Shown here in pieces: positions 839 through 31,629 of a stretch of 64,000 nucleotides of DNA. The notes under the pieces were generated by a model. That model made no database searches. It saw only the letters and a list, made by a program, of their open reading frames with translations, and had not been told where the DNA came from. Made by a program: the position numbers and the translations under genes. The stretch's first letter is position 1. Every line of letters begins with the position of its first letter. The stretch is from a virus (Duplodnaviria; Heunggongvirae; Uroviricota; Caudoviricetes): positions 1 to 64,000 of IMG/VR virus record IMGVR_UViG_2778261223_000007; one strand, 5' to 3'.

Positions 839-2536
839 GTGAATAAAAACATTCAGCCAGCTCGTGATCGCGAGCGCGAGATTATGAATCGGGCGGCAAG
901 CGTCATGGCTATGACCGTCGATCCGACCACCGATGCAGCAGGAAACATGATTGCTGACCAGGCAGTAATGATGGAAAACCTGGATAAAGCAATCCAGAAA
1001 GTGCCTATGTTTGAAGGCGTAAATCCAGAGGTCGCTCGTCAGATCACTGGTGGGTGGGCTATGTCTCTGCATGAGTATAAACGTCAACATGGTCATTACC
1101 CGGCAAGTGACATCCTGGCGAACGCACACATGGCTCTTGAACGCTTGATGACTGAATGTGCCAGTGATACCCATGAAGGCACGGGTAAGGCAATGTTTGA
1201 GTCTGTCGCGCAATCAATGCGTAGCTCTGACGGCGTAATGAAAGTTGCTCAATATGCTGCTCTAATTCTGCCTGCCTCTCTGGGCGCTGCTACCAGTGAT
1301 GCCTGTACTTTTGTTCCTTGTGATCGTGACGAGTCAAATATTTATGAACTGGTCAACGTAGCAGGCACAAAATTCGGCACCTTCAAACAAGGTGACGAAC
1401 TGAATATGCAGTCAGCTGGTGTTTATTCTCAAATGAAGCGCCTGTATACCCTTTCCACTAAAGGGGATGGCAGCACCAAAACCTTCCAGTTCGACATCCA
1501 AAATTTTGAGGGACAATCCTGCCCGCTTCGCGCTGGTTATAACAAACTGCTGATCAACCGCAAACCGTCCAAAGTTGACGACGGCGATGGCAACCTTTAT
1601 TTCAATGCTAAAGACAGCAAAGGTAATGCTTTCTCAGCGACTGCCAAAGTTGCCTATGACACTGGTGTCATTGACATTACATTTACCCAGGCTCCGCCAG
1701 AAGGTACTGAAATTGCTGTTCAGGTCGAAATTAACATCGAGCGCAATCCAAGCCTGATTCCGGTGATCAACCAGGCTATGCGTAAGTACGAAGTTCGTCC
1801 GTCCCAGTACGTAATTGCTTCCGAACACACGGTAATGTCCGCATCCGATTTAAGCCGTGAGCACGGCCTTGAATTAGCGGCACTTCAGTTCTCCGCGATG
1901 CGTAACTGGATCTCCCATGAAACCGACATCATGCGTCTGCGCACCCTGGTATTCCATACCGTTTATGGTCGTGAATTTGATGTGGCTCTGCCGGAAGCTC
2001 AAAACTATGAGTCCTGGGTCGGCCTCCTGCGTCACGTAGTAAACGCTCTGTCTCAAGAAATGGCAAATCGTACCCTGACAACGGGTATTCGTGGCGGCTT
2101 TGCTGGTGGTGACGCCGCGAACTTCCTGCGCTCTCTGCCTCCACAGCACTTCCAGATCGCACCAGGTTACGTTCAGTCGCCGTATGTACAGTACATCGGC
2201 ACCCTGTTTGGCACGATTCGTATTTACGAAGTGCCGCAACCTGTCTGTGAGCAATTCCAGGCACAGGGATATGACTTCGGGCTGGATGACATCTTCTTCT
2301 ATGGGCGTGGCGAAGGCATCGGTAAAGCCGGTCTGATTGCTGGTGATGCAGTCCCAGCAATCCCTTACGTGCACGAAACCAATCCGTCTCTCGTTAACCG
2401 TACCACTCTCTGGGGCAGTGCCATCAACGAAGTACATCCTCGCAACGGTGAAAACTACTTCACCCGCCTGCGTCTGACTCGTGCCAAAGAAGGTGCTATC
2501 GACATGCTGACAGGCAAGGTTAACGAAAAAAAGTGA
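839..2536 (+). CDS. large virion structural protein, likely major head protein precursor (P1 gp23-like by size and position)
   Basis: 565-aa ORF heading the structural block, followed by Ig-like and sheath genes; assignment from size and context only. Confidence 0.35.
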   Translation: MNKNIQPARDREREIMNRAASVMAMTVDPTTDAAGNMIADQAVMMENLDKAIQKVPMFEGVNPEVARQITGGWAMSLHEYKRQHGHYPASDILANAHMALERLMTECASDTHEGTGKAMFESVAQSMRSSDGVMKVAQYAALILPASLGAATSDACTFVPCDRDESNIYELVNVAGTKFGTFKQGDELNMQSAGVYSQMKRLYTLSTKGDGSTKTFQFDIQNFEGQSCPLRAGYNKLLINRKPSKVDDGDGNLYFNAKDSKGNAFSATAKVAYDTGVIDITFTQAPPEGTEIAVQVEINIERNPSLIPVINQAMRKYEVRPSQYVIASEHTVMSASDLSREHGLELAALQFSAMRNWISHETDIMRLRTLVFHTVYGREFDVALPEAQNYESWVGLLRHVVNALSQEMANRTLTTGIRGGFAGGDAANFLRSLPPQHFQIAPGYVQSPYVQYIGTLFGTIRIYEVPQPVCEQFQAQGYDFGLDDIFFYGRGEGIGKAGLIAGDAVPAIPYVHETNPSLVNRTTLWGSAINEVHPRNGENYFTRLRLTRAKEGAIDMLTGKVNEKK

Positions 2537-2683
2537 TGGTGGCGAACGTGTCGGTATCACCAACGTCACTTGACGTAGATGAAGGTGAAACTATCGCCGC
2601 GAACACTTCAAAGGCACAGAAAAAAACAAAGCAGAAGTAAGGCAAAAACACGCCCCTGAATAAGGGGCGTTCAGGAGAAAAGA

Positions 2684-2962
2684 ATGGCAAACATTCAAGT
2701 AACTATCACGCCATCTGACGCAACAGACAAATCTTTCACTGTTGAGTCAGATCACCCTGAAATTGTCCAGGTTGATGGCACTACATGTACCGCTCTTAAG
2801 GCCGGGCAGGCAGTGCTGACAATCAAAACAAATGACGGCAATAAAACCGCACAGTGCACAGTCACTGTTAGGGAGGCACCTAAAAGCGTAAGCGCCGTCA
2901 GTGTTGAACCAACTACGAAAGAAGTAACCGTAGGCGACAACTTCACGGTAAGCGAATCCTGA
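2684..2962 (+). CDS. Ig-like (Big_2-type) domain protein, possible head decoration/accessory protein
   Basis: 92-aa all-beta Ig-like sequence (..TVTVREAPKSVSAVSVEPTTKEVTVGDNFTV); a similar motif recurs inside the next ORF. Confidence 0.4.
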   Translation: MANIQVTITPSDATDKSFTVESDHPEIVQVDGTTCTALKAGQAVLTIKTNDGNKTAQCTVTVREAPKSVSAVSVEPTTKEVTVGDNFTVSES

Positions 2963-3029
2963 TCAGAGGCTGCCCATTAACCGTGGGTAGCCTTGCCTCG
3001 TTCTCTCGCTTTAGAGGATAAGAACCAGC

Positions 3030-4688
3030 ATGAATAAGATTAGTTTTTCGGTAGGGCAGGCAGCTGGCGTTGCTGTAATGTCAGTAAATGCTGACGCTAC
3101 CCTCACCAATACCAGCGGTGGCGCATCCGTCTTTGCTGGGCTTGTAATATCGCGTCGTGGCGCACCGGGTAAGGTACTGAAAGTTGACGATACGACTTAT
3201 CAAAGCGTATTAGGTTCACCGATTCACCCTCGCCAGGGCGCGGCATTTGAACCATATCGCCACGTGGAGCGTGCAGTAAAAGGCGGATCTGGATATGTCG
3301 TTCGAGTTTGCGCTAAAGACATGAAGGTGCCGGGTATTTCTGTTTCCGTTGTGGGCAAAGCAAAAGCGGCAAAGGCGAGCAAAGAACTTTCCGTTGAACC
3401 TACTGAAACCACAGTAAATCCAGGTGACACATTAAGCGTTGGTGTTGCTTCAACTGCAACGACTCAATCAGTGTCCTTCACACCCAAAGAGACGCCCCAG
3501 ATTAAAGGTGAAGAGAAGGCATTATTCTTCATCAAAGATGGTGATGCATCTCAAAATCGCACGTTATCACTAACTCGCGATGATGAAGAAAGCGAACTCT
3601 TTACGCTGACGCTGAAAGAAAAACAAACCGATGGGTCCATTGAGGTGCTGGAAAGCCACCAAGTGTCTTTCAATCCAGAAGGCACTAACGACATGGGCCA
3701 ACCAGCATGGATTCCGACACTGCTTGAAAGCCAGTCCACTCGCATTGGTGCCGTACTGGCAGATAATGCAGAAGCATCCGCTGCTCAACTCATTTTTGAG
3801 GATGTAGCTTTTGAAGGTGGTACTGATGGAGATCTGTCCGAAATTGACACTGAAGACTATCTGGAAGCATTAAAGGTTCTCGAAGCTTCAGAGGTTAATT
3901 ACACCGCATTGCTGTCACTGGGTTGTTATGACGCATCCGCCTTAGCCGCAATCAAAAAGCTGGCTGAAGATGTTCGCGTAGACATGTTCTATGACCTGAA
4001 GGGCAACCAGACACCTGAAAACGCTATTTCAGAAGCGAAAAGCCATAGTTTTGGCGGCTCACATCAACCAAGCCGTTACTACTTCCCGCTCTCCTGCCGA
4101 GATACTTTCACTGGAATGAATGTCGTCTATGGCATTAGCTGCGACGCATTCGTAGCGAAAGCAAAAGGAGTGGCGCTGGTACCGGATGTTGGTGGTTGGC
4201 ATTACGCACCGGCAGGTATATCACGCGCGATTATTGATCGACAGAACATTGCCCGAATTCCAAATATCGGTGCAGTTGATCGTGAAGCGTTCGTTCTTGC
4301 GCGCATTAATCCAGTTTCAGTTGCTGCTGACGGGTCCGTTTACATTGACGACTCTTTAACAACTTACAGCAAAAACAACTATCTGCGATTCCAGCATGTG
4401 TCTTCCTTGATGAACGCCATCGCCAGAGATTTCTATGAAGTAGCTCAGGCGATTAAGCACGAACCGGATGGCATTACCAAAGAAACGCTAATGAAAGCAA
4501 TGACTGAATTGCTTGACCGTTACGTTGCAGCCGGTGCGCTGGTTACTCCACGTGACAAGTCCCAGGGTGAAGATCCATATGTTGTTCAGGTTGTCCAAAA
4601 GGACATCGATCTGTGGGAAGTGTCCTGGTCTGTTTGTCCGACCGGTACAGCTCGCCGAATCGTCGGTAAGCCAATTCTGATGCGCTGA
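3030..4688 (+). CDS. contractile tail sheath protein
   Basis: 552 aa; C-terminal GWHYAPAGISRAI resembles the conserved sheath W-x-S-PAG motif (T4 gp18 / P2 FI); position upstream of tube-sized ORFs. Confidence 0.5.
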   Translation: MNKISFSVGQAAGVAVMSVNADATLTNTSGGASVFAGLVISRRGAPGKVLKVDDTTYQSVLGSPIHPRQGAAFEPYRHVERAVKGGSGYVVRVCAKDMKVPGISVSVVGKAKAAKASKELSVEPTETTVNPGDTLSVGVASTATTQSVSFTPKETPQIKGEEKALFFIKDGDASQNRTLSLTRDDEESELFTLTLKEKQTDGSIEVLESHQVSFNPEGTNDMGQPAWIPTLLESQSTRIGAVLADNAEASAAQLIFEDVAFEGGTDGDLSEIDTEDYLEALKVLEASEVNYTALLSLGCYDASALAAIKKLAEDVRVDMFYDLKGNQTPENAISEAKSHSFGGSHQPSRYYFPLSCRDTFTGMNVVYGISCDAFVAKAKGVALVPDVGGWHYAPAGISRAIIDRQNIARIPNIGAVDREAFVLARINPVSVAADGSVYIDDSLTTYSKNNYLRFQHVSSLMNAIARDFYEVAQAIKHEPDGITKETLMKAMTELLDRYVAAGALVTPRDKSQGEDPYVVQVVQKDIDLWEVSWSVCPTGTARRIVGKPILMR

Positions 4689-4725
4689 TTTATAACCCCC
4701 GCTAAATGATGCGGGGGAGAGAGGT

Positions 4726-5466
4726 TTGAATATGAAAAATTATACTGCTGATCCTTTTATGCGTGCGATTTTCGGTTCTGGCTGCTTTGAAAGCGGTGAT
4801 AAATCCACGCAGGACAATAATGATAACGCCATGCTGGAAAGCGCAGGACAGAAAGGAAAGGACACTCAACCAAAGCCCAAAGACGACATTGAAACCGCGA
4901 TGATGGAAGCGGTTGAATCCCGTGCACAAGGTGATATGCGCAGCCTGGCAGCTTCCATGCTTGCTGGTTGGGTTGAAGATGGTGATCCGGAGGCTGACTC
5001 ATTTGATGCATTAGCAATCACTATGGCTGGCCTGGCTGATATCGATGAAGACACCGATTTCACCGATGAGCAAATCGATGCTTATAACGATGCTCTCGCA
5101 GCTCTTGCTGATGCAGCTGTTGCGCTTGGCGCTGATCAGGACGATGTAACCGAAATGATCGACGATGAAGATGACTCAGCTGCCGAACGTGTTTATGACG
5201 CTCTTTCCGAAAGCGACACCGACATGATGGAAACAGCTATTGCCATTTACACCGTTGCTGGTGGTGATAGCGCAATGCTGGAAGCGGTACGTAAAAAAGT
5301 GGTTCGTGATGGCAAGGTTACCATCATCCGTAAACGCCCGCGTCCTCGCCGCATGACGTCATTGCAAAAACAGGCGCTGAAAAAAGCACGCCGCAAAGCA
5401 CATACATCCGTAGCGAATATCAACCGCAAAAAATCAATGCGCATTCGCAAAAAACGCGGTTTGTAA
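4726..5466 (+). CDS. hypothetical virion-associated protein (acidic N-terminus, basic C-terminus)
   Basis: 246 aa, D/E-rich core and K/R-rich tail; composition typical of scaffold or internal/DNA-associated proteins. Confidence 0.3.
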   Translation: MNMKNYTADPFMRAIFGSGCFESGDKSTQDNNDNAMLESAGQKGKDTQPKPKDDIETAMMEAVESRAQGDMRSLAASMLAGWVEDGDPEADSFDALAITMAGLADIDEDTDFTDEQIDAYNDALAALADAAVALGADQDDVTEMIDDEDDSAAERVYDALSESDTDMMETAIAIYTVAGGDSAMLEAVRKKVVRDGKVTIIRKRPRPRRMTSLQKQALKKARRKAHTSVANINRKKSMRIRKKRGL

Positions 5467-5515
5467 GTGACACAGGCCGCCTGCAAAGGTGGCCTCTACC
5501 TGGGAGAAATAGCGT

Positions 5516-6106
5516 TTGATTTGCGGCGCGATAATGCCTGACGGAATAAGTCCGTTAATGAAGGTTTATATCCTCTCTTCAGAGGATATGGTCGTCGGTT
5601 ATATCGGTGAAGGATCTACCGCAGAACTGTCATCAATGTGGCAATCACCATTTGAAAACCAGTCAGTAGGAGGTTTGCTTGGCGGTATTAGCGCTGCGGC
5701 TGGCTCTCTTGCAGATACGCTTCAGACCGCAACCGGCGTAACAACAAAAACCCTCTTCAACTCAATGCTTGTTTGGGAAGGTCAGCAACCGCCTGAATTT
5801 AATCTGGTAATTGATTTCATGGCGACAGTGAATGCGCAACTTGAAGTGAACGCAGCCATTACAGCATTGCTGAAGATGGAATCGCCGGAACTGAACAATG
5901 TAGCGCCATTCGGTCGTCGCCCGGAGACAGTAACGTTAAACATAGGTAGGAACATAGCCCTTACCGACGTTGTTATCAAAAGCGTGAGTTACCAACTGGA
6001 CGCCCCGCGCACACCGGAAGGCTATTTCACTCATAACACGGTAACCCTGCAATGCAGCGGTAACACATCGATCAACCGTAGCAATATCTCATCTGTTTTT
6101 GTGTAG
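5516..6106 (+). CDS. putative tail tube / structural protein
   Basis: 196-aa ORF directly after the sheath region in a myovirus-like order; no specific motif. Confidence 0.3.
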   Translation: MICGAIMPDGISPLMKVYILSSEDMVVGYIGEGSTAELSSMWQSPFENQSVGGLLGGISAAAGSLADTLQTATGVTTKTLFNSMLVWEGQQPPEFNLVIDFMATVNAQLEVNAAITALLKMESPELNNVAPFGRRPETVTLNIGRNIALTDVVIKSVSYQLDAPRTPEGYFTHNTVTLQCSGNTSINRSNISSVFV

Positions 6107-6114
6107 GAGTATTT

Positions 6115-6606
6115 ATGTCCGGTTTTGCAAATACAAAAGCCGATATGGCCTTTCTAAAATCCCGGTTTAATAAAAACCTGGCTGCAGGCGAAAAACTTAT
6201 TGGTTCTGAATATTGGATGACCATTAAGGGTTACGAACATCTGTCTGTACTAGTTCGTACAGCTCAGTTACCAGAAATGACACGTGAAGATGTGGAGGAT
6301 TACGCCCCTGGTGGCATGAAATTCAACCAGCACGGACCATTACGCAACTCTGGTGAATTTCAGGTCACATGCGCGGAAACTATCGAAGGCGCAGTTCTCG
6401 CCGCTGTAAAACAGATGGTATACGGAAAAGAATATCTGGAAATTACCTTACAGGCGGCGGCTGAATCGAATAGCGGTAACCATAAAGGTCTGATCCGCAC
6501 ATATTCTCATTGCAAAGTGTATTCCGACGCCGTGGACTTCTCATCCGAAGACGTAACGGCGGTCGTTAAACCTTCCCTGCGCATTGTTTACAACTGGGCG
6601 GAATAA
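6115..6606 (+). CDS. putative tail structural protein
   Basis: 163-aa ORF, tightly packed in the tail operon. Confidence 0.3.
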   Translation: MSGFANTKADMAFLKSRFNKNLAAGEKLIGSEYWMTIKGYEHLSVLVRTAQLPEMTREDVEDYAPGGMKFNQHGPLRNSGEFQVTCAETIEGAVLAAVKQMVYGKEYLEITLQAAAESNSGNHKGLIRTYSHCKVYSDAVDFSSEDVTAVVKPSLRIVYNWAE

Positions 6607-6660
6607 TCCCTATCCCGCCCTTGTGGCGGGAACATCCTTGTTATTGAGTTGTAGGCAACA

Positions 6661-7212
6661 ATGACACCAATTGAATTATTAGAAAGCGTTAAAGAGCGAT
6701 TTAATCCGCTGCTTGTGCGTGAAGAAGAAACGTTGAAAGCATTCCTGATCAAAGCTCTGACCACGTATCAGGACAGGGCAGGGGTAGTGAAAACGTTAAA
6801 ACTTGAAAGAGCTGGTGGTACTGCAATCCCGTTGCCAGAAGATTATCTCTCTCTGGTTCATGTTACCGACAACAACGGCCTGTTGGTCTATTCGGATGAA
6901 TTATCCGGCTTTATTGAATTAGAGCTAACAGGTTCAGAACGCTGGCCTTTTCGAATGCTGTATCTGGTTAATCTACGCGACAGAAAGCTGGATGAATGGC
7001 AAGTGCCTCCTGCAATCATTGGAATGCTGGAGGAATATCTGGAGGCGCTTATCAACGTAAGAAATGTCGCCCGGCAGCGTAGAGCATCCATCGACGGGAA
7101 ATTTGACTACTCCGATCTGCCCGATGAAGCCACGCTATATGCCCGCGTGCAGGAGATTGAGGAAAAAATGTCCTCAAACCGGGCCATTATTCCGGGGGCT
7201 ACCATTTTTTAA
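6661..7212 (+). CDS. hypothetical tail-module protein
   Basis: 183-aa ORF in structural operon. Confidence 0.3.
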   Translation: MTPIELLESVKERFNPLLVREEETLKAFLIKALTTYQDRAGVVKTLKLERAGGTAIPLPEDYLSLVHVTDNNGLLVYSDELSGFIELELTGSERWPFRMLYLVNLRDRKLDEWQVPPAIIGMLEEYLEALINVRNVARQRRASIDGKFDYSDLPDEATLYARVQEIEEKMSSNRAIIPGATIF

Positions 7213-7227
7213 CGCTGGAGGCGCAGA

Positions 7228-7935
7228 GTGAGTATTTTCAGCAGCGTTGGTAGAACGTTGACCACCGCATTGTCATTTAACACGAAATCATTCACCAGCA
7301 ACCTCATTAGCGACATTCTTGATAAAGCCATATCAGGCGGCGGGGTAAGCGGGAATTACAGTAGCGATATTGCCTACGGGAAAAATATTGTTGCTGCCGC
7401 TATGCGTATCCGTTACGCCCAGGGGTGGCAGTGGACCGTTGAAGTGGATGGTCTGAACGGCTTCGATATGTTCGTGAAGGATATCACCTACAGCAGTGGG
7501 AACATCGAGACAGAAAGCAAGGTGATCGGCAGCGTAGAATTCAGCAAGCCAACCTATGTTAGCGCCGGACCGGTCACTATGACCGTGAGGGATACCGAAG
7601 ATGGCAAGATCATGGACTGGTTCAAAGAGCGTCGTTCTCGTGTAACAAATCCTGATGGAACAATAAACCTTCCTCCGGAATATCTGATGAAAATCCGTGT
7701 CTACCGGGTAACTCAGGACGGCGGAAAAGAACTGGAAGAAGAAATGCGCGTATTTCCTACACAACTTGGGGAAATCACTCGCTCACGTGATCAGGTGTCA
7801 GAGTTCTTGTCATACCCAATCACTTTCCAGAAATACACATCCGCAGGCTCAGGTGTTTCTGCTTTGGTCAACGGTGCCGCAGGCATGGCTACAAGTGCGT
7901 TAAAGGGAGCTGTGAGTGGAGTGATTAAATTCTGA
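7228..7935 (+). CDS. hypothetical tail-module protein
   Basis: 235-aa ORF in structural operon, Gly/Ser-rich ends. Confidence 0.3.
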   Translation: MSIFSSVGRTLTTALSFNTKSFTSNLISDILDKAISGGGVSGNYSSDIAYGKNIVAAAMRIRYAQGWQWTVEVDGLNGFDMFVKDITYSSGNIETESKVIGSVEFSKPTYVSAGPVTMTVRDTEDGKIMDWFKERRSRVTNPDGTINLPPEYLMKIRVYRVTQDGGKELEEEMRVFPTQLGEITRSRDQVSEFLSYPITFQKYTSAGSGVSALVNGAAGMATSALKGAVSGVIKF

Positions 7936-8015
7936 AGCGCTTTAATTATGTGTGCTGGAGGGTTGCTCATTTCCCGTCAGCACCCACGCCCTCAACGATA
8001 GCGGGTAGGGAAGGT

Positions 8016-8320
8016 AGCGCAATTTTGAGGGCATTTTTTACATCATCAATTCATCTGTAATGAAGGCATTCTTTACACATTTCAATAATATCAATCAGTT
8101 AACACAGTGAATGATAATAAAAAAGCGCAATAAGAATGCACGATACGCACGATATTGGTTGAGGGTGATTTTTACATAACCCTTATATATCAATGCGTTA
8201 TATAAAAACACAACTTGCTAATAACAAGATACATGCAATTAAGATGTAAAAATTGCCCTCAATTGCCGATCGTTAAGGGCAAATTCTACACCTTGAGAAG
8301 GGTGTAAAAATTGCCCTTAA
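8016..8320. repeat. iteron cluster downstream of rep (incA-like copy-control iterons)
   Basis: ~19-bp iterons TGAGGG(C/T)(A/G)nTTTTACA(T/C)C at 8016-8034, 8160-8178, 8243-8261 (inverted), 8274-8292, 8301-8320 (inverted). Confidence 0.6.
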
Positions 8321-9072
8321 GATTGCTGATAGGTAAATTTTATCCTGGTAACTTTGCCGCCTTCCGTCACCTCTGAGAAGACTATTTTCATTTTTGTATT
8401 TTTTTCAATCTCTGCTACAGCCTTCGTTAAAAAACTTCTCTTAAATTCGGCATACCGCTGATAGCTTTTTGGTAACCCATAACGCTCCCGCATCCATTCG
8501 ACGCCAAGTATGGCAAAGCCGCTTCCATCATCCTTCCTGTACTGGCATAAGGACTCATAAAGCCGCATAGAATAAGGATTTGTAAGGCGAGATACTTCGG
8601 TAAAATTCAGCCTTGTGAATCTCTTATCAAGCAGAGTAAAAAACGGCATGAGATATGGATTAAGATGAATAATGTAAGTCCCGCGCCGTGGTGAATAGGC
8701 ATCCTTAATCATCCAAGGATAAGACTCATAACTGTCTTCTGATTCGGTCGATTCATCAGGGTTATATATCGTAACTTTCTTCTCGCTAAGACCTGAAATG
8801 GCCTTACGAATATCCTTGCTGGCTTCAGCAGAGGGCAAATTATACATCTCTGCATATTCGTTGACCGTCAACTCACAGGCACCTGAACCAAGAACGCCAT
8901 CCTTAGAAGCATAGCGAAGTCTTCCCACCACAATAAACAACAGTCGCTTTTGGTCGCGAGTCAGGTGATAAGCAGCCTCCGTGATCTCATTGGCTTGTGC
9001 CAAACTACGACTAATAGGTGTCGCTGACTCAATCAGGCTGACGGCTTTTGCTGTTAATTCCGCTCTGTTCAT
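8317..9072 (-). CDS. iteron-type plasmid replication initiator (RepA/Rep_3-like)
   Basis: Flanked on both sides by iterons; sequence has the feel of Rep_3 initiators (..NPYSMRLYESL..). Track ORF starts at TTG 9105 inside the first iteron; ATG at 9072 (MNRAELTAKA) is the more likely start. Confidence 0.6.
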   Translation of the reverse strand: MNRAELTAKAVSLIESATPISRSLAQANEITEAAYHLTRDQKRLLFIVVGRLRYASKDGVLGSGACELTVNEYAEMYNLPSAEASKDIRKAISGLSEKKVTIYNPDESTESEDSYESYPWMIKDAYSPRRGTYIIHLNPYLMPFFTLLDKRFTRLNFTEVSRLTNPYSMRLYESLCQYRKDDGSGFAILGVEWMRERYGLPKSYQRYAEFKRSFLTKAVAEIEKNTKMKIVFSEVTEGGKVTRIKFTYQQS

Positions 9073-14459: not shown

Positions 14460-15886
14460 CGATTACAGAATTACTGGACAAATTTAACGCCAAGTTAAAT
14501 GAAAACACATGGTGGTCACGATTTGTAAATAGTCAGTTTGTGCAGATGCACGCTATATTCGGATCACAGCTTATTTATATTGCCCGTACATTTGCAAGCC
14601 GCGGCCTCACTGAGGGACTTATTTCAACGGCTACGCGCCGCTCAAGTATTTTAGCGGTTGCTGAAGACCGTAGCTACGTAGGGCGATTTGTTAGTGCTTC
14701 ATACGGAACAACGTCTATAACCAATAAAACTGATCGGGATATTACGTTACCAGCCGGGGCTGAATTGCTTGCCAATGACCAAACACCTTTGGCAATTATT
14801 AACAGTGTTGTAATTCCTGCTGGAGGAACTGTTTCTGGCGTAGAAACTAAACAGCATGAAGCTGTTAGCGTTACATTTGATATTGAGAAGGAAACTTTAT
14901 TTCTGACATTGTTGCTTTCCAGAGAATTAACAAAAGAAGTCTCTAGCCTGGATGTTTATGTTATTACAGATGGCGTAGAAGAAAAATGGACATATAACCC
15001 ATTATTTAGAATGTCCAGAGACAAGAGTAAGCACTATTCATTGGCATATAAACCTACAGAACAACTTGGAGTCAAGTTTGGTGATGGTTCTATGGGTATG
15101 ATGCCTCCAGCAGGCTGTCAGGTTCGAATCGATGTTATGGCTAGCCTTGGCGACTATACTTTGGCTGAAGGACAAAAGTTAGAACCGGCTGGAAATATCG
15201 CTCAATATGTGGAGTCACTAGAGTTTAAAACTGATTCGATCATTACCGGTGGTAGTGGTATGGAAACTACAGAAGAAACTCGAAATCGTGCTCAGTATTA
15301 TGTTGCATACGATGAACAAGTGGTATGGGGCGGTGATTATCGCCAATTCATTCAGAATGTTGTTCATGGAACTTCATGGTTGAACGTTTGGGGCGAAGCG
15401 TTGCAAGAGAAAATAACTGGGTTTGACGTTCGAAACATCAACAAGATTTTCTTTTGCGGACATAAGCCAGGTGTAAGCCAGGCTCAGCTAAAATCAGAAA
15501 TACTGAAAGCTCTAGAGAATGTTCCAAATGAGTTGAACAAGCGGTTTGAGTATGTAGATACAAATGAACAACCATTTACTATAATATTTACAGGTATTGC
15601 ACGTAAAAATGTTCTGATAGACGACGCTCAAAATGCTATTAAAGCAGCGTTGGAAGAAAATTTTGGTCGTGATTCGTCATCATTCAGTTTATTACTACAG
15701 AGTGATGATGATTCTCAGCAATGTTATGCACAGGTAAAAGTTAAAGATATTTGGCGAGTAATAGAGTCGCTGGATATGTTTCTCTCTTATGACATAACAA
15801 TACAAAATATGAAAGATGCAGTTTACTTTAATGACTTCATTTATCTTGACGTGAAATCTTCAACGTTCAGCATTTCTTACCCGTAA
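14456..15886 (+). CDS. putative baseplate protein (gpJ-like)
   Basis: 476-aa ORF overlapping neighbours by 4 nt (translational coupling); position preceding the tail fibre. Confidence 0.4.
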   Translation: MTITELLDKFNAKLNENTWWSRFVNSQFVQMHAIFGSQLIYIARTFASRGLTEGLISTATRRSSILAVAEDRSYVGRFVSASYGTTSITNKTDRDITLPAGAELLANDQTPLAIINSVVIPAGGTVSGVETKQHEAVSVTFDIEKETLFLTLLLSRELTKEVSSLDVYVITDGVEEKWTYNPLFRMSRDKSKHYSLAYKPTEQLGVKFGDGSMGMMPPAGCQVRIDVMASLGDYTLAEGQKLEPAGNIAQYVESLEFKTDSIITGGSGMETTEETRNRAQYYVAYDEQVVWGGDYRQFIQNVVHGTSWLNVWGEALQEKITGFDVRNINKIFFCGHKPGVSQAQLKSEILKALENVPNELNKRFEYVDTNEQPFTIIFTGIARKNVLIDDAQNAIKAALEENFGRDSSSFSLLLQSDDDSQQCYAQVKVKDIWRVIESLDMFLSYDITIQNMKDAVYFNDFIYLDVKSSTFSISYP

Positions 15887-15896
15887 TGAGGTTAGC

Positions 15897-16742
15897 ATGA
15901 AAGATAATTGGCTTAAGGAACGATTAACTAAAGTAAAACAGGATTCACATCTCTGGAGTGCATTTATAGACGCTTTACAGGATGTCTGGAATGAGGCAGT
16001 AGAACCAATATTAACAAGAATAAGTAACAGAAAATCCTTCTTCACTATGGACAGTGAGGACATGGATGCCCGCATTGCTGAATACGGGCGTTTTTTCGTT
16101 ATCACTGAAAAAGATAAGGCTCGTAGGCCAATGCTGCTGGCACAACGTTTAGATGAAGTGCACTTTAAAGGCACTATCTTGCCAATTGAGCAGACATTCT
16201 GGCGTGAATTCGGTTGTATTCCTGTTAGTTGGGAACCGCTGTATGCACCTGTAAATATAGAAAAACACCCCTATGGTTCATATTTTGCGACCGAAATAGA
16301 AATACCTACGGCACAGGCTCAATTCGGTGAGTTCTTCCTGACATCAAGGGGGCTGGTCGTTGTTGATCAGAACAAGCTATATCGCTCATATGGAGAGCAG
16401 GATAAAGAAGCCGCTGTACAGAAATTGTTATCTGACTTCGAAACAGTAATAGCCCCTTTATTGCCATTGCATATTGTTTTTGATGGCGTCTCGTTTCGGC
16501 TTAGTGCTGTATTCCCTGAAGTGGCAGAAATACTAAATTGCTTGTCTACGGATGTTTCGGTAATTGAAGGTGTTTATGTTACTGAGAGTATGGCTGATAT
16601 GCTATCCCGTAGTGATACCTCCTGCCAGGTAGACAATATTTCTCTTAACGCCATACCGAACCGAACGGCAGAAAAGCAATTACATCTTGATGTAACCCCA
16701 CTCGATGCGTGGCCTTTGGATTACCACCTTCAACCTGTTTAA
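15897..16742 (+). CDS. putative baseplate/tail protein (gpI-like)
   Basis: 281-aa ORF in the baseplate series. Confidence 0.35.
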   Translation: MKDNWLKERLTKVKQDSHLWSAFIDALQDVWNEAVEPILTRISNRKSFFTMDSEDMDARIAEYGRFFVITEKDKARRPMLLAQRLDEVHFKGTILPIEQTFWREFGCIPVSWEPLYAPVNIEKHPYGSYFATEIEIPTAQAQFGEFFLTSRGLVVVDQNKLYRSYGEQDKEAAVQKLLSDFETVIAPLLPLHIVFDGVSFRLSAVFPEVAEILNCLSTDVSVIEGVYVTESMADMLSRSDTSCQVDNISLNAIPNRTAEKQLHLDVTPLDAWPLDYHLQPV

Positions 16743-23551: not shown

Positions 23552-23656
23552 ATGTCCCCCCTTGTATGTTAAGGGGGGAGATTCTAGAAGATGTCCTGTA
23601 AGGAAATAACAAACTGACTAAGTTAGTGGCGCATTAGATGTTATTTCTGGAGGGGT

Positions 23657-27425: not shown

Positions 27426-28802
27426 TTGGAGTGTATTTTGAACAAATCAGTTACTTCTGCGCTTTCCGAGGCCGCAGATATTAACAGCGTCATTGCTCTG
27501 GTTTCTTCATTAGAGAGGAAAGAAACACGCCTGGGGCGAAGTAGCTACGTAGTCACCAGCAAAGGTGCAGAGGTAAAGACGGCTTTTAAGGTCGTTGATG
27601 CCAGCAGTCTGATCATTTCGAACAACCTTGACGGTACGATTAACCCGGCCTTCCCGGAAGAACTCCAACCACGAGATCGTACCCGGCTATCCAGCAAACT
27701 CCAGGTTAACCGTATTGCCTCCGATTTACGCCCGGCACAATTAACGGATTCCGGTATGAGCAGCCACGGAGCGCCGATAGTTGGTCCGGACAACGTTGTT
27801 GAATCCGGCAACGGAAGGAGTATGGGTATCTGGCGTGCCTATGAGCAAGGACAGGCGGATGAGTATCGCCAGTACCTGATCGACCATGCGAAAGAGTTTG
27901 GTCTGAATCCTGACGAAATTTCGCAAATGTCTATGCCCGTACTGGTGCGAGAAAGACTCACAGATGTAGACCGCGCTCAATTTGCCCGCGATTCAAACAT
28001 TAGCGATCTGCAAGAGATGGCAGCAAGTGAAAAAGCGTATGCGGATGCGCAATTTCTCACTGAGAGCGTCATGGCGCTATTTAATCCTTCAGATGATGGA
28101 AATCTGCTGGCGCGGTCCAATGATGCGTTTATTCGTGCGTTTTTGCGCGAAATTGGCGATACAGCGACGGCAGGCTTGCTTACTGCCGATGGGCGTCCCA
28201 CGAAACAGCTTATCGATCGCATCCAGAATGCAATTTTTGCCAAAGCGTACAAGGATGAAAGGCTTGTTCGGCTGGTGTCGGAAGAGCCAGATCCGGAAAT
28301 GCGTAATATCCTGATCGCATTAAATACGGCAGCCAGCGATTTTGCGCAAATGCAGTCGCTGTCTGGCGATGTTCACCATGACACGGTAACCGGACTGGTA
28401 GACGGTATAGAGCAATTGAATGGTCTGGATAAACAGGCTATTGCAGCGCTACAGGAAGCAATTAACCTTGTTCGTGAAGCAAAAGATAACGGTCAGGCAG
28501 TAGAAGAGGTGATCGCACAGCGTGGATTGTTTGGAGATAGCACTCCGGAAGCAGAAGCGCTTGCTCTGTTTATTGTTGCCAACAACCGAAGCGCTAAGCG
28601 AATGGGGGCCGCTTTCAAGAAACTGGCGCAAAAAATTAACGATGAACTTATTCACCAACAACAAGCGTTAGGCGATATGTTCGGCGGCGGAGATGTCGAT
28701 CTGCGTAGCATTTTATCTGCCGTTTCTGATGAAATTGAGACTGAGTTTGGCGAAGGTAAAGGGTTAATTTTTTCTATGTTTGAGCCAACCTCTGTTGGGT
28801 AA
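27426..28802 (+). CDS. hypothetical protein (DdrB-like position)
   Basis: 458-aa ORF; start codon uncertain (TTG in track). Confidence 0.3.
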   Translation: MECILNKSVTSALSEAADINSVIALVSSLERKETRLGRSSYVVTSKGAEVKTAFKVVDASSLIISNNLDGTINPAFPEELQPRDRTRLSSKLQVNRIASDLRPAQLTDSGMSSHGAPIVGPDNVVESGNGRSMGIWRAYEQGQADEYRQYLIDHAKEFGLNPDEISQMSMPVLVRERLTDVDRAQFARDSNISDLQEMAASEKAYADAQFLTESVMALFNPSDDGNLLARSNDAFIRAFLREIGDTATAGLLTADGRPTKQLIDRIQNAIFAKAYKDERLVRLVSEEPDPEMRNILIALNTAASDFAQMQSLSGDVHHDTVTGLVDGIEQLNGLDKQAIAALQEAINLVREAKDNGQAVEEVIAQRGLFGDSTPEAEALALFIVANNRSAKRMGAAFKKLAQKINDELIHQQQALGDMFGGGDVDLRSILSAVSDEIETEFGEGKGLIFSMFEPTSVG

Positions 28803-28927
28803 CATCAATGTAACTTAATGCTCTTTCTGTGCGTTCATCACATATCTGAAGATGGGCGCATAATTCATTTTTGTTCCTGTTTAATAATATGTAAACTAGC
28901 TGAAAATATAATGAATGAGGATAACCG

Positions 28928-29485
28928 ATGTCATCATTTACAGATTTGGTTTCAGCTCTTGCATGGCCATTGGTGTTTGTGTGGTTTGTTAATAAGTATG
29001 GGGTTGATATTAAGGAGTTAATAGTACGTCTGAGTAGATTCAAGATTGGAGTAGCTGAAGCTGAGTTTAATGCGGGACTAACCGCAGCAGAAGTATTAGC
29101 AACAGATGCATCAGTTGGGAATAGAAATATTAACAATGGTAATAATAACTCTGAATATATAAATAAAATCGCACAATTAGAGAGAATTGCTGATTTTTCA
29201 CCTAGAGCTGCTATTATGGAGTCATGGTTGATGGTAGAGGAGGCTGCCGGGCGCTCTGGTTTTATACAGGGAGGGTTAAAGCCGAAACGGAATCCAGAAC
29301 TATTCATTGACTGGTTGATTCAAGAAGGAAAACTTGAAGATTCCGCTGCTTTGCTGTTAAAACGGCTTCGCTCGCTAAGAAATGAAGCCGCGCACTTTCT
29401 GGATTTTGAAATCACCAGAAATGAAGCTGAACGCTATATAAGACTTGCAGCGAAGGTTTCACAACTTATTGTTGATCCAGATTAG
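28928..29485 (+). CDS. membrane-anchored protein with C-terminal HEPN-like (Rx4H) domain
   Basis: 185 aa; N-terminal hydrophobic helix (LVSALAWPLVFVWFV); C-terminal ..LKRLRSLRNEAAHFLDFE.. carries an R-x4-H motif; gene lies in a visibly AT-rich island. Confidence 0.4.
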   Translation: MSSFTDLVSALAWPLVFVWFVNKYGVDIKELIVRLSRFKIGVAEAEFNAGLTAAEVLATDASVGNRNINNGNNNSEYINKIAQLERIADFSPRAAIMESWLMVEEAAGRSGFIQGGLKPKRNPELFIDWLIQEGKLEDSAALLLKRLRSLRNEAAHFLDFEITRNEAERYIRLAAKVSQLIVDPD

Positions 29486-29529
29486 TTTTACTTACTTAGC
29501 TTTGATAATTTATAACATGGAGTATAGTT

Positions 29530-29862
29530 ATGAGAAATATAATCCTGGTTTGTGCTTTATTAGCTTCTGCATCAGTTTGTGCTGCGCCCTATAAGATAAA
29601 AATCCCTTCTGATCCAAAAGCTACTTATACAGTGCTGGATATTGGTCGTGAAGGTGAATATAAAACTATCATTACAAAAAGGGAAGGCCCATCTGGGACA
29701 GCATATTCGAAGAGAATATATAATTGCATGACAAATGAAGTGAAGTATCTTGGTTCTGGGGAGACGCTTGAACAGATGAAAAATTCAAAACCTGATCCCA
29801 AAATGGGGGGGATTGTAAGTGGTTCCATCGCTGACTATGTGGGCAGGGAAGCGTGTAAGTAA
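29530..29862 (+). CDS. small secreted/periplasmic protein
   Basis: 110 aa with signal-peptide-like N-terminus (MRNIILVCALLASASVCAAP); AT-rich codon usage like its neighbour. Confidence 0.4.
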   Translation: MRNIILVCALLASASVCAAPYKIKIPSDPKATYTVLDIGREGEYKTIITKREGPSGTAYSKRIYNCMTNEVKYLGSGETLEQMKNSKPDPKMGGIVSGSIADYVGREACK

Positions 29863-29946
29863 TCATTAACAGCACCAATAAAACTCTCCTATCAAATCAC
29901 ATACTGATTATGCTGCCGCAAAACTGGAAACAATTTGCGGTGATTC

Positions 29947-31629
29947 ATGGCAACGAAAGACAAAAACAAAGGCTTTCTGTCAGCATTGAAGAAAGCCTTC
30001 AACGGTGGTGATGTTACGCCCGCCGATCCGGTCGTTTTTACGAGCGGGCATAGTGTCGTTGCTCGTTCCGGCCTGTCTGCTTTACGTCCAGGTATACTGG
30101 GGAGCAACAGCGATGGCATGACGAGTGCAGCAGATTCAATTTCTTTATCCGCTGAACTGCCCGGCGAGCGCCTGCAAAAGTACAACATCCTGGAAACGAT
30201 GGCTAAAAGCCCGACTATCTCGACGGCTTTAAACATTCACATTGCACATGCGCTTGCGCCTTCAAAAAAAACCGGACAAGCATTCATCCTTTCGCCAAAG
30301 GATGGTTCCGATGCTGAGGCAGTAAGTAGATGTGAAGAGTTAACCGCTGATTTGGGGGCGATGATTAATGACGGACTTCCTTCATGGGCCATGATTATGG
30401 CTATCTTTGGGGTGTCTTATGTCCGACCTTATGCTGAACAGGGCAGGGGGATAACAGGCATTGAGTCCAGTTATTACACTCTGCCACACTTCGTCCAGGA
30501 GTTTTATCGTGGTAGCCAGCTGGTAGGTTTCAGTGGTGATTACATTCTGGATACGCATAGTTTGCGCAGAGTAATAACCGAACCGTGGAATCTGGTTTCC
30601 ATGAAAAATCCCTATTGGACGCCACAGCATAAAGTTATTCCGGTTAGCTACGGCACAAAAGGGTACTCACTGTTAAGTGATCAGGCTGATAAGCCGTTAA
30701 TGGAGACGCAGAATTACGGAACTTCATTCCTGGAATACAGCTATGAACCTTACCTTAATTTATGTGCTTCGCTCGCCGCGCTGAAATCAACGCGAAATAA
30801 TGCAGCCAAAATTGACCGCCTGATTGCTCTTACGACGAACACACTGGACCCGGTTAATGCGGCGAACTATACGCGTGGCGTCAGCCAGGCATTGAAGCGT
30901 CATAGTGACCTGGTGGCGCAAAGGTCGATTAATGCCAACGCTATTCCGACTGTGCTTAACCATCTGATACCTGTTATGGGAGACGGGAAGAACGGCATCA
31001 CCATTGATACGCAATCCATACCCGCAGATATCAGTGGTATCGAAGACGTTATGTTTCACCTCCGGCAGCTTGCTGCAAGCCTCGGCATTGACGCAACAAT
31101 GCTTGGCTGGGCTGATCAGATGAGCGGAGGGCTTGGAGAAGGCGGCTGGCAGCAAACTGCTATCCAGGCTGCATTGCGTGCGAACTGGATCAGACAGGCC
31201 GCCCAGCGAACTATTTATCGGCTTCTGGACATTCACCTCGCTTATAAATACGGCAAGGTTTACACCGAAACAAACCGCCCTTATGACGTGCAATTCAACT
31301 CAATGAACACTGCTATCCAGGAAGAGGAAAACCGAGAACTGGATGCACGCGCCAACTTTGTTGCTGTCATCTCCCAAATTATGGACCAGATCCAGAACAA
31401 CCCGAAACTGGCTGGTAGCGACGCGTTTATGCGTTATCTGTTCACTGAGCAGTTGCACATCGACGATGACACTCTCAACACCATGATCAAAGAGTTTAAG
31501 GCGAATGAATCAGAGCAAAACAACGAGCATGGTATGTACGAATCCGCGCCGTTGTCGTCCGGTGACGATCCGGAAAACTGGACGCCAGAACAGTTAATAA
31601 ACTTTGCAAAATTTGTGATGAGCAATTAA
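29947..31629 (+). CDS. portal protein candidate
   Basis: 560-aa ORF followed directly by a protease/scaffold-like gene, the canonical head-module order; size fits portal proteins. Confidence 0.45.
   Translation: MATKDKNKGFLSALKKAFNGGDVTPADPVVFTSGHSVVARSGLSALRPGILGSNSDGMTSAADSISLSAELPGERLQKYNILETMAKSPTISTALNIHIAHALAPSKKTGQAFILSPKDGSDAEAVSRCEELTADLGAMINDGLPSWAMIMAIFGVSYVRPYAEQGRGITGIESSYYTLPHFVQEFYRGSQLVGFSGDYILDTHSLRRVITEPWNLVSMKNPYWTPQHKVIPVSYGTKGYSLLSDQADKPLMETQNYGTSFLEYSYEPYLNLCASLAALKSTRNNAAKIDRLIALTTNTLDPVNAANYTRGVSQALKRHSDLVAQRSINANAIPTVLNHLIPVMGDGKNGITIDTQSIPADISGIEDVMFHLRQLAASLGIDATMLGWADQMSGGLGEGGWQQTAIQAALRANWIRQAAQRTIYRLLDIHLAYKYGKVYTETNRPYDVQFNSMNTAIQEEENRELDARANFVAVISQIMDQIQNNPKLAGSDAFMRYLFTEQLHIDDDTLNTMIKEFKANESEQNNEHGMYESAPLSSGDDPENWTPEQLINFAKFVMSN

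Follow-up and report, generated by a model that had tools for sequence, protein, structure and literature searches.

HEPN domains are four-helix up-down bundles with an insert between helices 2 and 3, an R-x4-6-H motif that ends helix 3, a polar residue (N, D or H) after the arginine and a conserved acidic residue in helix 2 (PMC3710099); they act as metal-independent RNases, usually as dimers with a composite active site (Anantharaman et al. 2013, PMC3710099). Three 'membrane-associated HEPN' groups were described by the same authors (Biol Direct 8:15). In the first of them a HEPN domain overlapping DUF4145 is combined with a single N-terminal transmembrane (TM) helix carrying a 'strictly conserved WP signature' (PMC3710099). 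The authors predicted that the HEPN domain of this family (example: gi 153825856 of Vibrio cholerae) lies in the cytoplasm, and proposed that the family links stimuli at the cell surface to the degradation of RNA (PMC3710099). Here we describe orf24, a member of the W-P family encoded beside an unrelated gene, orf23, in a 1110-bp insert of Escherichia phage D6. The stretch of DNA that we analysed (the window; 64,000 nucleotides, positions 1 to 64,000 of IMG/VR record IMGVR_UViG_2778261223_000007) corresponds in reverse complement, at 99.9% identity, to D6 (NC_050154.1 / MF356679.1), a P1-like plasmid prophage.

Among the experimentally studied systems several are comparable with orf24. RAZR / PD-T7-4 (Nature 2026) is, like orf24, a single-gene protein with a HEPN domain of the DUF4145 clade, and the catalytic R and H of RAZR are required for defence; the RNase is switched on by ring proteins of phages (PMC13017515). 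Soluble and equipped with an N-terminal zinc ribbon, RAZR becomes active by assembling around these ring proteins, whereas orf24 has a predicted membrane helix and R-x4-H spacing. No significant match between the two was found in a profile search of solved structures. BxaP (PMC10799925) is a further validated DUF4145/HEPN single-protein defence, and the HEPN (DUF4145 or DUF3644) proteins of Ishtar cause loss of the plasmid RP4 (bioRxiv 10.64898/2026.07.06.735840). The best, yet non-significant (E=0.15), sequence match of orf24 around the motif was HepS, a single HEPN abortive-infection protein of the Salmonella prophage Gifsy-1 (Nature 2026, PMC13043305). HepS is soluble and tetrameric, senses a siphovirus tail-tip protein and has no membrane anchor. 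In predicted topology (N-out, one membrane helix, cytoplasmic nuclease) orf24 resembles SNIPE, a GIY-YIG nuclease of the membrane which cleaves the DNA of a phage as it is injected (Nature 2026, PMC13190303), and whose tether limits self-toxicity and places the enzyme at the site of phage entry. The SNIPE nuclease, a GIY-YIG DNase with DUF4041, has no homology to orf24; the likeness is an analogy, not membership.

orf24 and the W-P family of HEPN proteins

The following features were assigned to orf24.

28928..29485, + strand: orf24 (D6 gp103, YP_009914701.1), 185 aa, W-P anchor plus DUF4145-type HEPN domain; full-length match to phrog_18019
28937..28993, + strand: predicted single membrane helix, residues ~4-22, containing W13-P14; from alignment, hydropathy and charge bias
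29147..29473, + strand: HEPN domain, residues 74-182; modelled helices 74-90 and 92-109, insert, helices 138-156 and 164-182
29378..29395, + strand: R151-N152-E-A-A-H156 (R-x4-H) motif at the end of HEPN helix 3; from alignment and model

The first-pass annotation had proposed, from the letters of the window, that two open reading frames (ORFs) of 185 and 110 aa encode a membrane-anchored, HEPN-like protein with the motif LRSLRNEAAHF and a small secreted protein. Both ORFs exist, and so does the motif, which contains R151 to H156. To assess the HEPN assignment we used an alignment of 34 orf24 relatives, reaching down to 25% identity, and an AlphaFold2 model of the D6 protein (pLDDT 80.5). In the alignment W13, P14, S91-P92-R93-A94-A95, E98, W100, E104 and R151 were invariant, and N152 and H156 were conserved in at least 90% of the sequences. 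The model consists of a long helix spanning residues 2-60, a low-confidence Asn-rich linker and the C-terminal helical domain listed above. All four published sequence and structure features of HEPN domains were found in orf24, the acidic residues of helix 2 being the invariant E98 and E104, which lie within helix 92-109; the common E-x3-[KR] form of the helix 2 motif is not present. Alignment and model together indicate that orf24 has the HEPN fold, that its R-x4-H motif is intact and that a membrane anchor precedes the domain at the N-terminus, as the first-pass annotation had supposed.

The N-terminal helix was evaluated by hydropathy and charge. In the family the N-terminal segment is clearly hydrophobic (median Kyte-Doolittle value 1.9), and basic residues are distributed very unevenly, with 0.24 K/R before the helix against 3.5 K/R in the 15 residues after it. 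Because K and R are so strongly biased to the C-terminal side, the positive-inside rule predicts that the N-terminus is outside and that the C-terminus with the HEPN domain is cytoplasmic. This topology would leave only ~3-6 residues of orf24 on the periplasmic side.

Database names point the same way. RefSeq calls the D6 protein a 'DUF4145 domain-containing protein'. A homology search returned 103 relatives, nearly all of them full-length and 180-200 aa long; most of those at ~55-59% identity already carry the PF13643 label, some of the hits being marked weak. When 1.84 billion cluster representatives were searched with a profile, 7333 clusters matched at E<=1e-3, 672 of them at E<=1e-30, and among the hits listed nearly all relatives were 180-210 aa long. 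The orf24 family is large and of uniform architecture.

Two observations speak against this assignment. The hydrophobic segment of the D6 protein, FTDLVSALAWPLVFVWF, reaches a 19-residue Kyte-Doolittle maximum of 1.63, which is marginal for a membrane helix. Furthermore, the Pfam matches of orf24, which the first-pass annotation had named as a check together with those of orf23, were sub-threshold: DUF4145 (PF13643; E=8e-4) scored 19.9 bits where the gathering threshold is 23.1, over model positions 4-85 of 88, and HEPN_RiboL-PSP had E=0.011. With the W13-P14 signature invariant and the charge bias pronounced, we assign orf24 to the W-P-helix, DUF4145-type family, the first of the three membrane-associated groups. 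Its architecture is identical with that of the family, which has been described computationally only; the D6 copy differs in being borne by a phage-plasmid and in having a helix at the weak end of the family's hydrophobicity. The earlier statement that the gene pair could not be placed in any named system does not hold for its membrane-HEPN half, whose architecture is in PMC3710099 and which RefSeq already labels DUF4145.

The genomic settings of the relatives were heterogeneous. When the neighbours within three ORFs on either side were clustered over ~70-80 genome loci, no conserved partner emerged, and the largest cluster comprised 3 loci. Relatives of orf24 are mostly chromosomal and patchily distributed within species; twelve viral contigs also carry one. 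In Salmonella a relative lies where a P22-like gtrABC region ends, next to the remnant of an integrase gene. In Klebsiella and Raoultella (loci L095-L100, positions 860-7600) relatives directly follow a D5-type primase gene in small integrase-AlpA-HicB-primase islands that resemble phage satellites. Three of these islands (L098-L100) appear to sit within the head genes of a lambda-like prophage, between the portal and the protease-capsid genes. The Cronobacter relative (L101-L103, 3999-11258) is part of a defence-type island together with a CAP12/PCTIR TIR protein, AbiTii, an ApeA_NTD1-HEPN_Apea protein and two resolvases. The products of 134 directly adjacent genes, scanned with Pfam and PADLOC, were a mixed set; two CBASS cyclases, two NACHT proteins, two Vsr proteins, four GIY-YIG proteins and two IS200 transposases stood among many unrelated ones.

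In Pseudoalteromonas (L038), Photobacterium and Vibrio (L054, L069) the relatives occur in short same-strand cassette arrays split by repeats, which suggests integron gene cassettes. We read the repeats in L038 only (5333-6671); there they resemble attC sites (TAACAAGC...GGCGTTATG), and between two of them the HEPN gene is preceded by a further ORF, for a multi-pass membrane protein of 174 aa. In summary, orf24 has no regular partner gene: its relatives are single genes in variable loci that are often mobile or rich in defence genes.

orf23, an exported protein with a Protein E-like fold

The second gene of the insert has the following features.

29530..29862, + strand: orf23 (D6 gp104, YP_009914700.1), 110-aa exported protein with a predicted Protein E-like fold
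29530..29583, + strand: Sec-type signal peptide, residues 1-18, likely cleaved after VCA; read from the sequence
29725..29856, + strand: span from C66 to C109, predicted disulfide; from invariant cysteines and model

The signal peptide seen by the first-pass annotation reads as a typical Sec leader (MRNIILVCALLASASVCA, followed by AP after the likely cleavage site), and this supports an exported protein. The relatives keep a hydrophobic N-terminus, and a few distant ones have a lipobox. The D6 protein is without a lipobox and is probably periplasmic and soluble rather than surface-exposed.

We found 108 relatives, each ~110 aa long, whose sources include Enterobacterales, Pseudomonas and Xanthomonas; in viral contigs there are 118. 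None of the 30 members scanned, the D6 protein among them, matched a Pfam family, and no significant PDB sequence match was obtained. One database name would make orf23 a DUF2511/YebY protein; this was rejected on the same Pfam and PDB results. The one low E-value, to 6xi1, arises from a 20-residue repeat motif.

The model of orf23 is of high confidence (pLDDT 91 overall, ~98 for the mature part) and comprises five strands and a C-terminal helix. Cysteines 66 and 109 are invariant in 30 relatives. In the model C66 ends strand 4 (residues 56-65) and C109 stands just after the C-terminal helix (residues 100-108), so that a disulfide is predicted to tie the end of strand 4 to the helix. The arrangement recalls Protein E of Haemophilus influenzae, whose six-stranded antiparallel sheet has its C-terminal helix tied to the end of strand 4 by Cys99-Cys148 (PMC6652776). 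Protein E, a surface adhesin lipoprotein (PDB 3zh5), shares the antiparallel sheet, the C-terminal helix and the strand 4 disulfide with orf23. It differs in that identity is ~10% and orf23 has no Pfam match to the Protein E family, and in that orf23 is ~30 residues shorter and has a leader of signal-peptidase-I type, not a lipobox.

The neighbourhood of orf23 relatives was examined in 82 loci (the set includes the viral contigs L117-L195, L089 at 6001-8762 and L093 at 6001-9067). A tape-measure gene (TMP_3) was the next or next-but-one gene on the same strand after the orf23 relative in 44 of the 82. In 17 the relative followed two conserved large ORFs that are baseplate- or tail-fibre-like by sequence alone, and in 9 it stood just downstream of a CI-like S24 repressor. 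The slot between the tail chaperone and tape-measure genes is also that of HK97 gp15, a moron encoding an inner-membrane superinfection-exclusion protein (PMC3594210). HK97 gp15 and orf23 are both small envelope-targeted cargo proteins; however, gp15 is an inner-membrane YebO-like protein and orf23 an exported beta-sheet protein, with no relation in sequence or fold, and in D6 orf23 adjoins the portal gene, not the tape-measure gene.

orf23 belongs to an unnamed, common family of prophage cargo proteins. Because the family recurs beside the tape-measure gene or the repressor, an envelope-level function expressed by the lysogen is suggested, with superinfection exclusion as our leading guess. 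The likeness to an adhesin fits a role in host interaction equally well, which counts against that guess. A serious alternative, possible though the less probable of the two, is therefore that orf23 is a lysogenic-conversion factor acting in adhesion or serum resistance (cf. Protein E, Bor, Lom) and not in phage exclusion. It accords with the fold and disulfide shared with Protein E, which binds vitronectin, and with the carriers, E. coli and Salmonella from animals and humans. It accords less well with the fact that relatives are common in bacteria of soil and plants (e.g. Pseudomonas, Xanthomonas, Thiobacillus), with the probable soluble, periplasmic state of the D6 protein, which has no lipobox, and with the lack of a sequence-level match to the Protein E family.

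The insert as optional cargo of D6-like plasmids

The insert and its flanking genes are as follows.

28784..29893, no strand: accessory insert, 1110 bp, between the ddrB-like gene and prt; from blastn against cassette-less plasmids
27426..28802, + strand: left flank, ddrB-like gene; Pfam ddrB-ParB E=3.4e-42 and D6 annotation
29947..31629, + strand: right flank, portal gene prt; phrog_1497 portal E=6.5e-230 and D6 annotation

The boundaries of the insert were determined by comparing the window with the D6-like plasmids NZ_CP020051 and CP057742. In blastn homology stopped at 28783 and restarted at 29894, and the empty site of NZ_CP020051 has 51 bp where D6 has 1110 bp. At neither end of the insert did we find convincing boundary repeats or scars of recombination. 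The final ~6 codons of the ddrB-like gene (28784-28802) fall within the variable segment, hence the DdrB C-termini differ between D6 and its cassette-less relatives. In CP057742.1 an IS200/IS605 element (tnpA + tnpB; 2385-4253 of locus L088) lies between ddrB and prt at the exact position of the insert. Since it occupies the identical position, the ddrB-prt junction is a recurrent insertion slot. The left flank of the insert is more diverged (90-97% identity) than the right flank (99.9-100%).

To determine how common the insert is, positions 27900-30900 of the window were searched against 72,556 plasmids, which yielded 119 D6-like records. Fourteen of them cover the whole query and carry the insert, whereas ~100 match both flanks only, with a record span ~1.06 kb shorter. 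The 1110-bp unit, found in 14 plasmids of E. coli and Salmonella, always occurs as a single piece. Among 5426 complete E. coli genomes it was present at >=99% identity in nine, in each case on a ~90-kb plasmid, not on the chromosome. In two Salmonella plasmids that come from a single study, NZ_MK356557.1 (L087, 1501-4416) and NZ_MK356558.1, the cassette has only 89-95% identity, with fragmented short ORFs bearing odd names, e.g. 'poly(3-hydroxybutyrate) depolymerase'; this looks like an error-rich assembly rather than real divergence.

The composition of the segment agrees with these boundaries. The first-pass annotation had put its low GC content forward as a test. GC amounts to 0.384 in 28803-29890 and to 0.472 in the window as a whole, with 0.461 and 0.476 in the two 5-kb flanks, which places the segment at the 0.6th percentile of windows of equal length (sd 0.0315). 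GC3 is 0.31 in orf24 and 0.32 in orf23, against 0.47-0.52 in ddrB, prt and pro. The low-GC block matches the presence/absence polymorphism almost exactly. One other patch of the window is as GC-poor, 14651-16688; it holds conserved tail and baseplate genes, not cargo, which resemble P1 gene 16 and bplA.

Because presence and absence are clean, the unit occurs in one piece and its distribution is confined to plasmids, the 1110-bp block is optional cargo, horizontally acquired once by one D6 sub-lineage.

The insert had been called a moron. That label stands as far as composition unlike the flanks and presence/absence among close relatives are concerned. Strictly, a moron (Juhala/Hendrix) also has its own promoter and terminator and is expressed from the repressed prophage (PMC3594210), and for this part of the label our scans gave no backing. 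Shine-Dalgarno-like sequences precede both genes. A consensus sigma-70 scan of the insert found 5 promoter-like sites where 4.8 are expected, not above chance, and a terminator scan found 0 where 1.4 are expected. The two genes are co-directional between late operons, and they could be expressed late only. These three points weigh against a function in the lysogen.

Late-promoter signals were also inspected. A perfect palindrome-like box, ACTAAGTTAGT, lies at 23617-23627, 6 nt upstream of TTAGAT and just before lydA, and in D6 probably corresponds to the P1 late-promoter (Lpa) box of the dar/lyd operon. In the rest of the window we found no copy of this quality, and in the insert no good copy; the scan for the box gave 8 matches overall against 10.6 expected. 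ACTAG-N7-TATAAT at 28895-28912, upstream of orf24, is unique in the window. It is unlike the lydA palindrome, and as a candidate P1-type late promoter it was not used as evidence.

Possible functions of the two genes

We favour, with moderate confidence, the interpretation that the insert is acquired cargo of two independent genes, orf24 specifying a stand-alone abortive-infection or exclusion HEPN RNase and orf23 an envelope function. In the proposed mechanism orf24 would have a short N-terminus outside, one helix in the inner membrane, a long helical stalk, a flexible Asn-rich linker and a cytoplasmic HEPN domain with a complete R-N-x3-H site. Like other HEPN proteins it would be a metal-independent RNase, latent and held on the cytoplasmic side of the inner membrane. 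An event at this membrane or close to it, most likely one of infection by another phage, would activate the enzyme, which would cut cellular or phage RNA and protect the lysogen population by stand-alone abortive infection or exclusion. The product of orf23 would be exported to the periplasm, its beta-sheet and C-terminal helix held by the disulfide, and serve an envelope-level function of the lysogen.

The RNase activity of orf24, its trigger, its role in defence and expression in the lysogen are what we infer. A defence or exclusion role of the insert genes is plausible because of the genomic context of the relatives and because validated DUF4145/HEPN relatives exist. Several results, besides the transcription scans above, point away from it: neither orf24 nor orf23 had a match at E<=1 in PADLOC-DB v2.0.0, no experiment on any member of the membrane-anchored subfamily was found in the searched literature, and the genes directly next to orf24 relatives mostly cannot be recognised as defence genes.

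An interpretation that we think unlikely makes orf24 a housekeeping or stress-responsive membrane RNase that tunes RNA stability to envelope signals and is not directed against phages. This is the interpretation first offered for the family in PMC3710099, where fusions of the W-P helix to receiver domains are also reported. It suits a family as widespread as this one (the 7333 clusters at E<=1e-3), with many neighbours that are ordinary genes. The distribution does not suit it: orf24 itself is optional cargo on a phage-plasmid, and its relatives are patchy within species and occur in satellites, at prophage ends, in integron-like arrays and in defence islands, not at conserved chromosomal positions.

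In a more far-reaching version of the defence interpretation, which we consider rather improbable, the W-P-helix HEPN family would be a stand-alone immune sensor-effector, an RNA-targeting counterpart of SNIPE, to which orf23 adds an envelope block. The minimal helix would detect the disturbance of the inner membrane by an injecting phage or a holin, orf24 would oligomerise through its stalk, and RNA would be cleaved at the site of entry. The independently acquired orf23 would then be an envelope-level block against tape-measure-mediated entry.

A toxin that keeps the plasmid prophage by addiction (post-segregational killing), or an anti-plasmid weapon in the manner of Ishtar, seems a very unlikely role for orf24. 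D6 is indeed maintained as a plasmid, HEPN proteins are the toxins of HEPN-MNT toxin-antitoxin pairs, and HEPN Ishtar proteins cause the loss of RP4. However, the insert contains no antitoxin candidate and no MNT gene, the product of orf23 being exported; the ~100 of 119 D6-like plasmids that lack the cassette are maintained without it; and the relatives of orf24 are mostly chromosomal.

The first-pass annotation had treated orf24 and orf23 as one two-gene system. Such a system could work with periplasmic orf23 sensing an envelope event and signalling through the orf24 helix, which activates the HEPN domain. The two genes lie side by side in the same direction, separated by 44 bp, and have the similar, unusual GC3 values given above; they always travel together in D6-like plasmids, and a periplasmic and a membrane-anchored product have compatible geometry. 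The pairing was tested by reciprocal tblastn in the flanks of 195 loci, 108 with an orf24 relative and 89 with an orf23 relative. Both were found together only in D6-like elements, in the same cassette (L001, L104/L116, L087): in D6 itself, in one IMG/VR contig at 99-100% identity and in one lower-identity Salmonella D6-like plasmid. Because co-occurrence is confined to these elements, the pairing is incidental, and the two are unrelated genes that move independently. Elsewhere orf24 relatives have no conserved neighbour, and orf23 relatives stand in tail operons or by repressors with no HEPN gene; the few periplasmic residues of orf24 moreover offer almost no contact surface. The proposal of a two-gene system did not survive this test, and a two-component mechanism is highly improbable.

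In the D6 annotation the genes follow one another as hdf-darA-ddrA-ddrB-like, orf24, orf23, prt (portal), pro, and Pfam and PHROG scans of the flanks (DarA_N/DarA_C, DdrA-like, ddrB-ParB, portal) bore out the dar-like operon and the portal gene named in the first-pass annotation. The insert might serve the neighbouring Dar anti-restriction or head-assembly module, e.g. as an extra internal head protein or injected protein: it immediately follows hdf-darA-ddrA-ddrB and precedes prt/pro, all on one strand, and no terminator was detected. This is hardly credible, as most D6-like plasmids lack the cassette, an IS element can fill the slot, proteins with a membrane anchor or a Sec signal peptide would not be packaged into capsids, and relatives of both genes occur without dar genes.

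In the interpretation that we prefer, acquired cargo of two independent genes, orf24 itself is an already annotated protein of a known family next to an unrelated cargo gene. New is its recognition as a phage-plasmid-borne member of a family described in silico in 2013. The membrane-anchored DUF4145 HEPN proteins, predicted at that time, form thousands of 50%-identity clusters in many bacterial phyla, and the near-identical D6-like phage-plasmids with and without the 1.1-kb insert constitute a convenient natural experiment. To show what sets off a HEPN RNase whose membrane helix is almost bare would bring a further sensing principle to the growing set of single-protein HEPN defences (HepS, RAZR, ApeA). 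The orf23 family is a frequent, unstudied occupant of the HK97 gp15-type slot of tail operons, and an accessible candidate for a periplasmic protein that blocks phage entry.

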